Source of the DNA: Candidatus Yanofskybacteria bacterium RIFCSPHIGHO2_01_FULL_41_26
Lineage (GTDB): Bacteria; Patescibacteriota; Minisyncoccia; 2-02-FULL-40-12; GWA2-44-9
Assembly: GCA_001794055.1 (NCBI GenBank)
Contig: MGJB01000006.1
Location: 90,168-154,167, forward strand
DNA: 64,000 nt
Direction of reading: 5' to 3'
The notes under the pieces are model-generated. The model was not told the origin of the DNA, did no database searches, and worked only from the letters and a program-made list of their open reading frames with translations. The translations under genes and the position numbers were made by a program. Within the stretch, counting starts at the first letter, position 1, and each line of letters opens with the position of its first letter. Positions 7,661 through 61,884 of this stretch are shown piece after piece.

Positions 7661-8799
7661 TTTAACAAATTTTGAAGTTTTTCAGCGTAATCTTTTATTG
7701 TCGCTTTCTTTTCAAATTGTCCCACTATCTCCAGACCGCCTTGGCTATATTTTTGATACAAATCAGGGCTATTCAGCAGCTCTATTGCCTTGTGGGCTAT
7801 ATAATTAGCCTCCCAAGCCACAATCTCGCCCTCCAAGCCGTTTTTAAGCAAATCAGGCACTATTCCAACTGGGGTTGCCAGAACCGGCACCCCACAGGCC
7901 ATAGCCTCAACCACGACCCGAGGACCACCTTCATTAAAAGACGACATCACAAGAATCTTTGATTGATTAAGCAATTTGGCAACTTCTTGAGAATCCTTGG
8001 CCCAACCATAAAGTAAGACGTTATCTTGCAATTTCCAATTTTCAATTTTCGACTCACAATAATTTTTAAGTGACCCGTCTCCAACTATAAGAATTCTTAA
8101 TTTAAAACCTTGAACTTTGAGTTTTTTTGCCGCTTCTATTAATAGAACGATTCCCTTGTTGGGCTCTAATCGGCCGATGAAAATTAAATCATATTCTTTA
8201 GGCAAATTCATCGGCTTGAACATGTTCAAATCTATATATATTGACGGAATATAAGTAATTTTATTTTCAGGCACTCCGGCTTTCACTAAAAATTCGAGGG
8301 TTTGTTTTTGATTGACGACCCTGACCGCTGTTGCTTTTGAAGCATCAAACTTTATCAACCACCCCATTAAAATCCGATAGACGCTTTCTTTTGGGTTTGC
8401 CGCTTTTGGGTATCCGGAAATGTGGTGGATCTCAAGAACATAAGGAACTTTAGTTTTAAGCCACAATAATCTTGCTCCGATCCCATTATAAAAAGGTGGG
8501 AATTCGTGCACGATCATCAGGTCGAATTTCTGCTCTTTATAGATTTCCATCCCTTTCTTCAGAAACCAAAATGGATGAAGAATCAATGGCCAAGGTGAAA
8601 TGTGAACATAAACATTCCCAAACAGAGGTTCAGCCTTGGGGAGATTTGAGATTGAACCTATGTAAGTTTTAGGTGAAATGATATCAATCCTATCCCAATA
8701 TTTATGGAACTCTTCCAGAGTATTATAAAATGCCCCTTTTTTGCCGGAGGCCAAATCTTTCGCGCTACCTAATCCTGTTATCATCAAGAGTTTTGCCAT
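7657..8799 (-). CDS. Glycosyltransferase family 4
   Basis: FIGRLEPNKG, EGGPRVVVEAMACGVPVLATPVG. Confidence 0.9.
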   Translation of the reverse strand: MAKLLMITGLGSAKDLASGKKGAFYNTLEEFHKYWDRIDIISPKTYIGSISNLPKAEPLFGNVYVHISPWPLILHPFWFLKKGMEIYKEQKFDLMIVHEFPPFYNGIGARLLWLKTKVPYVLEIHHISGYPKAANPKESVYRILMGWLIKFDASKATAVRVVNQKQTLEFLVKAGVPENKITYIPSIYIDLNMFKPMNLPKEYDLIFIGRLEPNKGIVLLIEAAKKLKVQGFKLRILIVGDGSLKNYCESKIENWKLQDNVLLYGWAKDSQEVAKLLNQSKILVMSSFNEGGPRVVVEAMACGVPVLATPVGIVPDLLKNGLEGEIVAWEANYIAHKAIELLNSPDLYQKYSQGGLEIVGQFEKKATIKDYAEKLQNLLK

Positions 8800-8800
8800 A

Positions 8801-9964
8801 TCAATTTATTAACACTCTAATAGTTTCTTCAAACATTTTTTCCGAACTGAAATGCTCTGCCGTTTTTTTTCCTTCTTTCTTGAATTCTTCTCGTAATTCC
8901 AGGTCTTGCCAAAGAGATCTAATGGCCTCAATGAGATTAAACTCATCCTGATATTTAACCATAAAGCCGTTTTCTCCCTGTCTGACAATTTCTTTGTTTC
9001 CTCCCACAGCTGTCGTAATAACAGGCACACCGGCTGTCATAGCTTCCAGTATTTGATGCGAAAAACCTTCATAACCGCTATTGAGAACAAACGTGTCCGC
9101 CGCCGCCAGATAAGTTGCCAGCTCTTCCTGCGATTTTCTACCGACCAGATAAACCTTTCTTTCCAAACCAAGATTTTTGACCATTGATTCCAATATTTTT
9201 TTGTCAGACCCATCACCAACTATAACCAAACGGAAAAGTTGGCTTATATCCGAAAGGCGGGGCATGATCTTAATCAACATGCGAAACCCTTTCCAAGGCA
9301 CCAAACGCCCTGCGGATAATAAAATATCTCCATAAATGCCTACTTTTTTCTTAGCTTCTTCTTGACCGATGTCCGCGCTCTTAAAAGCAACCCCATTGTA
9401 GATGGTTGTAATTTTATCACCCGAAACGCCCCAGCCCCGGACAATTCCGGCCAGATACTTAGAAGGAACAATAATCTCATCGGCACTTTTACAAGCTCGA
9501 ACCTGAACTTTATGCAAAAAGCCTATCCAGCCGGTTTTTTTTGCTTTTTGAAAATCATCTATAAGCAGGTCTGTTTTATTTTTTTCCACTGCCACTTGCC
9601 AGGCATAATCACCGGCTATTCTAAGATAAAACTTCTTTTTAAAAAATCTTGCTCCAATCAAAGATGGAATTGCTCCGCTTAAAGTGCTCAACGAATATAC
9701 GATGTCGCTGTTTTTGCAGGTAAAGAAAACTTTCAAACCAAATGAGGCATGTTTAAAAAACCAAAAATTTTTCTTCCAAACACGTTTCACTTTAAACTGA
9801 TAATTTTTATCTTGCTCATGTTTTCTGACTGATGAGTATGTAATAACTTTAACTTTATAATCTTTTGACAATCTTTGAGCCAAAATTCTGACATACGAAG
9901 CCGGTCCGCCTATATCAGGAGGAAAGATACCTGTCACAATCAAGATGTTTTTTACTTTTTTCAT
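8801..9964 (-). CDS. Glycosyltransferase family 4
   Basis: FPPDIGGPA, GRLVPWKG, EGFSHQILEAMTAGVPV. Confidence 0.9.
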   Translation of the reverse strand: MKKVKNILIVTGIFPPDIGGPASYVRILAQRLSKDYKVKVITYSSVRKHEQDKNYQFKVKRVWKKNFWFFKHASFGLKVFFTCKNSDIVYSLSTLSGAIPSLIGARFFKKKFYLRIAGDYAWQVAVEKNKTDLLIDDFQKAKKTGWIGFLHKVQVRACKSADEIIVPSKYLAGIVRGWGVSGDKITTIYNGVAFKSADIGQEEAKKKVGIYGDILLSAGRLVPWKGFRMLIKIMPRLSDISQLFRLVIVGDGSDKKILESMVKNLGLERKVYLVGRKSQEELATYLAAADTFVLNSGYEGFSHQILEAMTAGVPVITTAVGGNKEIVRQGENGFMVKYQDEFNLIEAIRSLWQDLELREEFKKEGKKTAEHFSSEKMFEETIRVLIN

Positions 9965-59369: not shown

Positions 59370-59675
59370 CTACTTGCGCGAAAAAACACTTTTTATTTTA
59401 ATAAAACGTTTTTCGCTAGCTGGCGCTTGGCCGATAAGTTTTTTGTTTAATTCCTCATCCATTTCGAAATCCTTCCTATACTTATCTTCCCTGAAGGAAT
59501 CAACCAACCCTGTTGTCTGGTACAGAGGTTCAACCTTTGTAGTATCAACTTCGTTCAGTTTTTCTATATACTCCAAAATCGAAGAAAGATCTTTTTTAAG
59601 ACCTTTTTCTTCTTTCTCGCTTGTTTTTATTCTCGCCAGTTCGGCGATGTGTCTGACTTCTTTATCGGTTAGCAT
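59370..59675 (-). CDS. gatC: Asp/Glu-tRNA amidotransferase subunit C
   Basis: [31 protein letters not shown]. Confidence 0.88.
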
Positions 59676-59847
59676 AAGAATGGAGTGGGTGGACAGCGTT
59701 TTCATTCTGTCAAGGTGAGCAATCCTGCGCCTTTTCTCAGCCACACCCACAGATAAAATATACCACGAATCAATTGGCATTATCACTATTGACCTACACA
59801 AGTTTTTATGATAATATAATAATATCTTTCGCTTTGGGTGGGACGAG

Positions 59848-61884
59848 CTATTTAATTAAATTAAGAAACTCCTTCTCGTCTAAAATTTTCACGCCCAATT
59901 TTTGTGCCTCACCATATTTGGAGCCCGGTTCAGAGCCGGTAACGACATAATCGGTGTTTTTGGAAACCGAACTTGACACATCTCCGCCCAATTCCCTGAT
60001 TTTATCCTGGGCTTCATCCCGGCCCAATGTTTCAAGAGTTCCGGTCAGAACAAAAATTTTACCAGTAAGTTTGGTAGATTTTTTGGTTGCTTTCTCTTCA
60101 ATTACATGGACTCCCGCCTTTTTAAATTTGGATAATATGTTTTTGTTATAAGGTTTCTGAAACCAATTGTAGATACTTTGAGCCACTACTGGTCCCACAT
60201 CAGAGACTGATTGTAGGTCGTTTAGTGTTGCACGTTGTAAATTTTCTAATTTTTTAAATTTTTTGGCTAAAACAAAACCTGTTTCTTCGCCAACATGATC
60301 AATCCCTAAGGAATAGATAAATTTATTCAAAGGAACTTCCTTTTTTGATTGAATTACATTTATGACATTCTCTGCTGATTTTTCGGCAAATCTTTCCAGA
60401 TTCAGAAGGTCTTCTTTTTTAAGATTAAATAAATCAGCCGAATCACGTATGAGCCCGGCGGTCATAAGATTGTCTACAATTCGCGGACCGATGCCAGCCA
60501 TATTCAGAGCTTTACGGGAAGCAAAATGATAGATTGCTTTTCTTTTTATGGCCGGACAGCCTCGATTTACGCATCGGTAGGCAACCTGATCCGCAAATTG
60601 TTCGACAAGCTCTCCGCAAGCTGGACATTTTTGTAGCATGTGGAATTCTTTTTCCCTTCCGGTCCGCAATTCTTTCAAAACCTTTTTTACATCGGGAATC
60701 ACATCGCCGGCCCGGCCCACGATAACAGTGTCCCCTATTTTTAATCCGAGGCGTTTTATCTCATCCAGATTGTGGAGAGTTGCCCGTGAGACTGTTGTAC
60801 CGCCGATTCGAACGGGTCTTAAGACCGCTACCGGAGTTAAAACACCGGTTCGGCCAACTTGGACAATAATATCTTCAACCACTGTTTCTGATTCCTTGGG
60901 GGAAAATTTATAGGCAATCGCTCCTCGGGGAGCTTTTCCAACCACGCCTAGCCTGTCCAAGGTGTTATTGTGGTTCAATATAACCACCACACCATCTATC
61001 TCATAATTTAGTTTCTCTCTCTCTTTTTCCCAATGATTCCGAAATTTATTTATTCCCTCTATATTCTGGGCTGATTTATTGTGAGGATTTGTTTTGAATC
61101 CAAGAGATTTTAAAATAAGGTGTTCATCTTCATGTGTCTTCTGTCCGAGGTTGGTTATCAAAGAATAAGCATAAGAATCCAAATGACGGGATGCGGTTAC
61201 TTTTGGATCAAGCTGCCTGATGGAACCAGCAGCCAAATTGCGGGGGTTGGCATAAATTTTAAATCCGGCTTTTTTCTGCTCTTTATTTATTCTTTTAAAG
61301 TCACCCTTTGTTATAAAAACCTCTCCCCGAACAACAAGCCGTTCAGGAATTTTTAATCCTCCCGGATAACCTGGTTGGACGAGTTTCGAATTCTGAAGCT
61401 CTAAGTTTAGCGGTATCGCATCTACAGTTTTGAGGTTTTGGGTAACATCCTCGCCAATAATCCCATCTCCTCTAGTTGAACCCGTATCTAGTCGGCCGTT
61501 TTTATAAATTAATTCTATCGCCAAGCCGTCAATCTTCAATTCACAATAGTAGCCATGTCTTGATGCGTCCGGTATGACTTTTTCAAATCTTTTTTCCCAT
61601 TCTTCCATGTCATTTTCATCAAAAGCGTCATTGAATGAGAGCATTGGCTCGGGATGCCTGATCTTTTTGAATTGTTTAAGGGGTTTGCCAGCCACTCTTT
61701 GGGTCGGCGATTCTGGAGTAATCCATTCCGGGAATTTCTGTTCCAAGTCAAAAAGTTCTTTTTTTAAAGTGTCCAGAGCCTCGTCTGATATTTCTTGGCG
61801 ATCCAAAACATGATAAAGATAGCGATGATGGTTAATCGCTTTTCTAAGTTTTTCTATTCTTTCTTTTGCTTTAATTTTATCCAT
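59848..61884 (-). CDS. ligA: NAD-dependent DNA ligase
   Basis: ELKIDG, RGE, NPRN, DGVV, AYKF, QVGRTG, Zn finger, HhH, BRCT. Confidence 0.97.

Follow-up and report, generated by a model that had tools for sequence, protein, structure and literature searches.

Short hairpin families lying in frame in the genes of a Yanofskybacteria genome are probably non-autonomous mobile elements

How do short palindromic repeats enter the protein-coding genes of a streamlined bacterium, and why are they found there in frame? This question is raised by a stretch of 64,000 nucleotides from Candidatus Yanofskybacteria bacterium RIFCSPHIGHO2_01_FULL_41_26 (contig MGJB01000006.1, positions 90,168 to 154,167), called here the window. 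In our notation it is C6:90168-154167 of G000, the source genome (800 kb, 40% GC). A preliminary description of the window had reported at least seven unrelated palindrome families inside intact open reading frames (ORFs) and proposed that these elements survive by targeting coding loops. Our analysis led to a different reading: the hairpin families of 16-40 bases which lie in frame in intact genes are probably non-autonomous mobile elements, spread by small resident nucleases and kept where they are tolerated. The origin of new protein sequence in streamlined bacteria is an open question, and these elements address it.

The window was studied together with its whole genome and with 30 relatives (G-numbers are genomes, C-numbers contigs, L-numbers loci), which were used for gene-level searches. 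The genome-scale comparison covered most of three relatives: G003 from the same genus (741 of 762 kb, median protein identity 78%), G016 (822 kb, protein identity 61%) and G011 (918 of 937 kb). Gene calling followed a simple ORF rule and overlooked at least one short gene; trusted coding DNA made up 84% of G000. Families were found by repeat discovery followed by whole-genome motif scans with codon-shuffled genes as the control, and hairpin folding was tested against shuffles (z score). The bases of empty sites were taken from orthologs at 60-80% identity and also from gatA, hppA and paralog pairs.

Family A is a 39-nt palindrome. Family B, a 16-base hairpin TCCGCC-N4-GGCGGA, is the commonest element, and B2 is its nested form of 29 or 31 nt. 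Families C (PSTSSGQ-type) and D (LPAGRQ-type) are named here by their peptides; E, F and G were defined as well. The hairpin elements measure 16-40 nt and most copies are singletons, while copies of C and E fold weakly individually and were recognised as repeats. In the genes of G000 we counted 8 copies of A, 22 of B, 5 of B2, 8 of C, 6 of E, 1 of F and 19 of G, against 0-1 of each in the shuffled genes; the one genic copy of D, at 45760, was overlooked by the gene mask. About ten in-gene matches with net length 0 (some 4-6 of G type and about 5 of B type), all on conserved residues, look like chance. Inside the ORFs of the window we find A, B/B2, C/C2, D, E, G, a decayed CGCCCC-N3-GGGGCG type and an element at 23648, which makes seven to eight families. 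The number reported earlier stands, but the families are not all unrelated: B2 contains B, and C2 is a variant of C.

Comparison with homologs confirmed as true indels the inserts reported earlier in gatA, hppA, the MetG-like gene and both plus-strand sites of a GT4 glycosyltransferase gene. In gatA, the 16 nt of a family B hairpin (58136..58151, minus strand) have replaced 4 nt of the target, which gives a net gain of 4 aa. One of the four same-genus relatives has this insert too, and in the three empty alleles the flanks match while the 4-mers are unrelated. In hppA, a family C copy (52777..52800, minus strand, peptide PSNSSGQA) adds 8 aa according to a DNA alignment with four empty alleles. 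The tRNA-binding gene that resembles the C-terminal part of MetG has gained 7 aa from a family D palindrome (45760..45779, minus strand, z -4.7): the loop has 10 aa here and 3 aa in 66 of 120 homologs. The same +7 aa is present in 42 of the 120, with peptides ranging from NLPAG to unrecognisable, and seven have +8 aa with a peptide of family C type. In the plus-strand GT4 gene a family G-type hairpin (12678..12700, peptide HRGSISV, z -3.2) adds 7 aa relative to 78 of 87 rows of the alignment and lies in a coil after a helix.

Two of the inserts proved to be real indels without being recognisable palindromes. The other insert of the plus-strand GT4 gene (12552..12593, DTPAPEEQGSPHEV), placed earlier at 12545-12595, adds 14 aa relative to 64 of the 87 rows and forms a disordered loop. 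It is no longer palindromic (z -1.2); since an insert of 14 aa resembling it is present in two distant homologs, we read it as a decayed hairpin copy. In ligA the loop insertion (about 61345..61395, minus strand) adds 16 aa relative to G003 and G016, but it folds no better than its shuffles (z -0.8) and matches none of the defined families. This loop is variable across 30 genomes and is filled with other repeats in other relatives; in the ligA of G029 (L032), five tandem family C units encode a repeated ALSLSKEP peptide in the same loop. The inserts at 11690, 12552 and 12678 are present with 0 differences in contigs of sequencing runs, which disfavours an assembly artefact. The first of them was found also in a run not flagged as a possible source, the other two in a possible-source run. 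Among the matches listed, the assembled contigs of four runs gave no clean empty allele for 7600-27500.

What does an insertion leave behind? The B consensus stops sharply at 16 nt. When 82 in-gene matches of B were compared with orthologs, the net length was +4 aa in 38 cases, +5 in one and +3 in three, the rest being mixed (18), composite elements or chance. The best deletion was flat over four positions, and the four bases of the empty site match neither arm of B (0.11-0.32), while the flanks match at 0.51-0.84. The 31-nt B2 gives +9 residues (31 minus 4) with the same plateau of four positions, as in the GT4 gene 10697-11896 of the window (11690..11720, minus strand, z -5.8); the 29-nt B2 forms are mostly non-coding. 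Twelve gaps at a B site were seen in contigs of relatives. In non-coding repeats B replaces 2-11 bases, often at a hairpin tip or in a tRNA D-loop. Over all, the loss of target bases ranges from 0 to about 11, most often 3-4, and the pairs examined had no target duplication.

A hairpin is thus swapped in for a few target bases without duplication; this is the observed product, and the chemistry behind it we infer. The loss is small and variable, and 16-for-4 is to be regarded as the in-frame survivor of the swap. A fixed four-base exchange as an intrinsic property of B was considered and is refuted by non-coding pairs with nets of 5-14. Two points weigh against so simple a picture: the 82 comparisons are non-independent and were made with orthologs at 60-80% identity, and how many bases C, D and E replace is poorly resolved. 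A test of loop length on all TCCGCC..GGCGGA matches was borderline (p 0.06), because composite elements blur the signal. Among non-coding copies no preference for the leading or lagging strand was seen.

Do the elements seek coding loops, with lengths that have evolved to be codon multiples? The genic share of copies would agree with it, being 61% in G000 (64 of 105), 66% in G003 and 62% in G016, as would family G with 19 genic and 2 intergenic copies in G000, and the same loops have been struck repeatedly by different families. However, coding DNA makes up 81-85% of the genomes, hence copies are depleted there in all four (p 1e-5 to 1e-8; 1e-8 in G000), and G011 has only 3 genic copies. In G000 the density is 9.5 copies per 100 kb of coding and 32.1 of non-coding DNA, that is, 3.4-fold rarer in genes. 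Among paralogous empty/filled pairs with near-identical flanks from four genomes, the net length could be divided by three in all 5 of the genic pairs but in only 2 of the 15 non-coding ones (p 0.001), so that 13 of the 15 non-coding nets are of other lengths. This count excludes a B2 pair that matched itself, all pairs of family C and the external loci (two tRNA fragments with net 13 and three weaker pairs with nets 6, 9 and 9). The 29-nt B2 and 20-nt D forms are mostly non-coding, and the DNA has no evident signal of a protein loop. Active targeting of coding loops is consequently very improbable, and this part of the preliminary description is not supported.

Selection after insertion accounts for the same data better. 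In genes family C lies 34 times in sense and 3 times in antisense orientation, whereas in non-coding DNA its ratio by strand is 12:11. The reading frames of B are used 48:20:8 (PPAGG, SASWR, IRQLA), and a preference for certain targets may have a share in this. At 75 insertion sites conservation is lower than in the host genes (0.51 vs 0.65, p 4e-6), and loop-type residues are more frequent there (59 vs 44%). In AlphaFold models the ligA insert (residues 173-175 with a predicted local distance difference test, pLDDT, below 50), the GT4 insert at 12552 (residues 222-238 below 50) and that at 12678 are all in coil, outside the cores. Non-coding lengths of any frame and an orientation bias of C confined to genes are what near-random insertion with purifying selection afterwards would give. 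The codon-multiple lengths and the loop placement, both of which the preliminary description had expected, therefore speak for selection after insertion and not for targeting. We regard it as very probable that these are mobile hairpins filtered by selection.

Two findings do not sit easily with this conclusion: the 127 non-genic copies include no clear frameshifted casualty, and in 14 copies that more than one genome possesses, 10 of 90 third positions are different, compared with 50% over the whole genes, which is unexpected under plain neutrality. The low divergence could come from ascertainment, from hot spots that took up insertions in parallel, from lateral exchange or from a function at the DNA level. 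As a separate observation, outside the window (G000:C6 1730-1765) a family F doublet lies just behind a stop codon that splits two ORFs; in G011 these two form a single, fused ATPase-like gene.

If such a function exists, the hairpins may have been domesticated for DNA binding by DnaA, for control of incoming DNA as with Neisseria NTS/SsnA, or for mRNA structure, with the peptide as a by-product. Synonymous sites have indeed diverged far more than the shared copies, the 16-mer of B is found again in records of Patescibacteria and Bacteroidota, and the arms of family A are perfect DnaA boxes, so that about half of all such boxes lie in this family (18 of 37 in G000, 20 of 41 in G016). At least two box-like motifs occur in the flanks of 8 of 11 Y1 transposase genes of the family A clade and of 0 of 18 other Y1 genes. 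Against domestication stand a copy number that varies from 0 to 32 among close relatives, sites that are patchy between sister genomes (G011 again with its few genic copies), the existence of decayed copies, and a divergence test that sees only near-consensus copies. We find this explanation unlikely and continue with that of mobile hairpins under selection.

How much protein sequence has come from the repeats? Lineage-specific insertions of at least 3 aa between conserved anchors were collected from 306 ortholog trios. This census gave 137 insertions, and after removal of one of 391 aa there remained 136. GC-rich 12-mers that occur at least five, four or three times in one genome overlap 40, 48 and 65 of them respectively (29-48%), against 1.7, 3.9 and 14.7% in same-gene controls. 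By a lenient composite criterion it was 78 of 136 (11 of 28 for G000 alone), with 17.7% in the control. The repeats are the source of a third to half of recent lineage-specific insertions, in agreement with the earlier view of REP-like elements as a real source of new protein sequence. In annotation, the peptides NPPAGG, PSTSSGQA and LPAGRQ in proteins of the candidate phyla radiation (CPR) should be read as footprints of elements and not as functional motifs.

The census also revealed a second class of in-frame inserts, imperfect 7-nt tandem repeats (11 of 136; for example ISNDRFPISDS, NWKFKIEN and QLTTHNL), which in the window occur in genes 1274-2464, 7657-8799, 10697-11896, 19632-21233 and 23069-24928. 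In a gyrase A-like gene of G003 (G003:C1 16350-19994; L061, L074), an insertion of 391 aa that ends in HN before Ser is apparently an intein with an endonuclease.

Which enzymes could move the hairpins? A likely source had been passed over in the preliminary description. It is a Y1 HUH transposase gene inside the window (37802..38536, plus strand), of the type of REP-associated tyrosine transposases (RAYT; REP, repetitive extragenic palindrome), with family A on both sides. The upstream palindrome (37799..37837) holds two inverted perfect DnaA-box 9-mers, the downstream one lies at 38548..38586, and the likely start of the gene is near 37862. Y1_Tnp (E 5e-10) was the sole Pfam domain found, with no Pfam match for the C-terminal helix-turn-helix extension that goes with subclass 2.1; the NCBIfam model REP_Tyr_transpos gave 42.7 bits for the window protein and 45.3 bits in the other case, both below the cut-off of 80. 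The HuH and Y---NP motifs of class 2 enzymes are intact by comparison with Table 1 of PMC6006769, and NHYH, FQ, YIHFNP and WSS occur as in TnpA-Y1 of subclass 2.1. The assignment to this subclass (RAYT group 1) is one by motifs (NH[YF]H, FQ, Y[IV]HLNP-type, proximal SS).

The second Y1 gene of G000, on contig C11, is flanked by family F, whose hairpin is present in the window as an intergenic doublet (53657..53706). From the relatives 30 Y1 loci were retrieved, of which one classical IS200-like locus was left out. In 28 of the remaining 29 the same short sequence lies upstream and downstream of the gene, each gene having its own hairpin and related enzymes having related hairpins. The family A core is present in 4 of the 31 genomes, and an A-flanked Y1 gene was seen in three of these four (two Y1 loci of G004 stood outside this inspection). 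Of the dispersed A copies, 12 of 12 in G000 and 11 of 12 in G016 show the same variant as the flanks of the resident gene. Family F is confined to G000.

These arrangements suggest that Y1 enzymes move families A and F, which we hold to be quite likely. Several observations nevertheless count against a general role of these enzymes. G001 has an A-flanked gene and no dispersed A copies, only the two flanks; B, C, D, E and G flank neither Y1 gene of G000 on both sides. Across the 31 genomes the copy number of B is not clearly related to the number of RAYT genes (rho 0.24, p 0.19), and G002 has eight Y1 genes but two B copies.

Could hairpins spread with no dedicated enzyme at all, by local template switching or slippage, or by gene conversion between hairpins? 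Many non-coding copies do sit in loops of existing hairpins, and the separate 7-nt tandem inserts look like slippage. Such processes, however, are difficult to reconcile with the same fixed sequences of 16-40 nt at unrelated sites whose flanks share nothing, and with sequence variants that track the resident transposase gene. We consider this origin hardly credible and prefer enzyme-driven spread.

For families B, C and E the candidates are small single-domain GIY-YIG genes (PF01541) of 84-100 aa, three of them of 84-85 aa, whose nearest solved structures are UPF0213 proteins. Several of these genes are enclosed by inverted arms, and hairpin forms of the arms have expanded in the genome concerned. 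In the case of four arm families, from G003 and G016, the genome holding the gene has 40, 12, 9 and 10 copies of the arm, and the others have 2-3, 1-2, 0-1 and 0-1. The GIY-YIG gene of G000, on C17, has two C-type hairpins upstream; in this genome the proximity of C and of an E-like sequence is one-sided. B occurs in tRNA fragments that bracket GIY-YIG genes in G016 and in a Wolfebacteria record.

That GIY-YIG nucleases move B, C and E is a tentative proposal from gene neighbourhood, for which we put the chances somewhat below even, and this link is weaker than that of Y1. The defined families occur near no more than 4 of the 25 small GIY-YIG genes, and across the 31 genomes B copy number follows the GIY-YIG count weakly (rho 0.33, p 0.07), both of which speak against it. 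Besides, GIY-YIG genes were noted between a duplicated tRNA 5' fragment, with the D-loop region replaced by a hairpin, and the intact tRNA at L196 (G016:C22 109-345), L275, G011:C1 146868 and G016:C13 59706. At L195 (G016:C21 14776-14991) such a gene with inverted arms lies near the start of an apparent 16S rRNA gene, and the arm motif occurs 10 times in G016.

The following course of events may be proposed, which we hold to be more likely than not. Families A and F would belong to the RAYT-type Y1 transposases that they flank, and B, C and E, tentatively, to the GIY-YIG nucleases that they adjoin; the association is observed, the activity presumed. A hairpin would be swapped into its target with loss of a few bases, probably at single-stranded DNA and often at the tip of a hairpin. 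In genes only products with a net length of 3n, free of stops, placed in loops and encoding small polar peptides would persist, as the statistics suggest. Finally the hairpin would erode to orphan loop sequence in the protein, as decayed copies seem to indicate. It weighs against this scheme that enzyme action and ongoing movement are deduced from sequence. A wider formulation, namely that Patescibacteria possess a class of swap-in mini-hairpins moved by tiny GIY-YIG and by subclass 2.1 Y1 enzymes, to which the phylum owes more new protein-loop sequence than to any other single source, with family A maybe recruiting host DnaA by means of the boxes in its arms, appears to us rather doubtful.

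It remains to compare these elements with known systems. REP and REPIN elements with RAYT (TnpA-REP) are short multi-copy palindromes, with intragenic REPs in ligase, tRNA synthetase and repair genes (Di Nocera 2013, PMC3733652). Subclass 2.1 TnpA-Y1 are described as having no REP-like structure near the gene (Quentin 2018, PMC6006769), and RAYT group 1 as having a modest enrichment of 16-mers (Bertels 2017, PMC5581495). Our elements resemble this system in palindromes that flank a Y1 HUH gene, in several families per genome and in some in-frame copies in repair and tRNA-related genes (PMC3733652, PMC5581495, PMC6006769). They differ in that 61-66% of copies are genic in three genomes, while REPs are predominantly extragenic. 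A GTAG-like foot seems to be present only in family A (GTGG at the foot of its consensus hairpin; the consensus lines of B, B2, C, D and E show none), target bases are replaced, and copies are mostly singletons. In contrast to the account of subclass 2.1 (PMC6006769), 28 of 29 genes here share a flanking hairpin, and the view of these enzymes as REP-free is to be revised. Families A and F fit the REPtron architecture but not the extragenic location or the NCBIfam cut-off, nor clearly the tetranucleotide tag.

The Rickettsia palindromic elements (RPEs) lie in frame in housekeeping proteins and were proposed as a source of new peptides (Ogata 2000, according to PMC3733652 and to Delihas 2011, PMC3184786). 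Our hairpins likewise lie in frame in housekeeping genes that have stayed intact, but RPE-1 has about 105-146 nt according to these descriptions and our hairpins have 16-40 nt; moreover, many of our families turn over from one sister species to another, and the genome itself holds candidate enzymes. Ssn proteins, of about 100 aa, are GIY-YIG single-strand nucleases with cognate, dispersed NTS/SRM hairpins, for which the authors suggested mobility and of which 2% of NTS are genic (Chenal 2025, PMC11893778). Single-domain GIY-YIG genes with dispersed hairpins are found here as well, but several of them are enclosed by the two arms of a single inverted repeat or have duplicated tRNA 5' fragments as neighbours. 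The present evidence does not allow B, C, D, E and G to be classed either with REPs or with Ssn repeats.

In-frame palindromes as such are already known from Rickettsia RPEs and intragenic REPs; new are the scale, the swap mode and the links to enzymes. In Nostoc, the small dispersed repeats described by Elhai in 2008 are reportedly mobile, very small and found in frame within conserved genes; we know of no enzyme linked to them. In the open literature searched we found no report of such elements in CPR bacteria.

How REP-like hairpins enter new sites is an open question, for which dozens of empty/filled pairs with a defined product (16 in, about 4 out) are now available. Enzyme and hairpin change sequence together, and with such co-varying pairs and defined products the insertion step is therefore testable in vitro with small proteins. 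Each enzyme-hairpin pair is a candidate sequence-specific single-strand nuclease system.

The other copies in the window lie on the minus strand. Family A is in frame at three further sites: in the GT2 glycosyltransferase gene 9961-10728 (10500..10529, net +11 aa, z -3.9), as a full palindrome carrying DnaA boxes in the membrane protein gene 24921-26948 (26529..26569, net +10 aa vs G003), and as a core in a gene for a 1304-aa protein (34359..34380, net +8 aa vs G003). Family C is present in a 432-aa dehydrogenase-like gene (16364..16382, net +6 to +9 aa), and a C-like copy in a 604-aa membrane protein gene (22795..22810), where comparison with one ortholog flagged no gap. Variants of C2 type occupy a low-complexity linker of the same 1304-aa protein (35208..35229) and a place near the C-terminus of a 288-aa one (49588..49609). 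Family E was found inside a +13 aa insertion vs G003 in a 215-aa gene (27337..27363) and in a 392-aa gene (28426..28452), with a near-identical copy in G003. A family G doublet adds about 6 aa to a 619-aa membrane protein gene (24362..24399, z -7.0), and a degenerate G-like insert adds 7 aa vs G003 to a 380-aa GT4 gene (8625..8660). In the 619-aa gene an insertion of about 14 aa (23648..23690) resembles an element in G011 weakly (E 0.04).

Matches at 11492, 52880 and 59525 were set aside as probable chance, with net length 0. Matches that change no length in hppA (52880-52892) and in the ligA zinc finger (60600-60620, C2-like) may be chance or the overwriting of host codons. Larger intergenic repeats of 100-200 nt occur at 45947-45995 of the window and at about 20 other sites, some with loops replaced by B or C hairpins. 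After the tRNA-Trp gene, the segment 46680-48100 has 50% GC and several hairpins, and it includes a perfect palindrome (46825-46847) as well as ORFs that lack orthologs.

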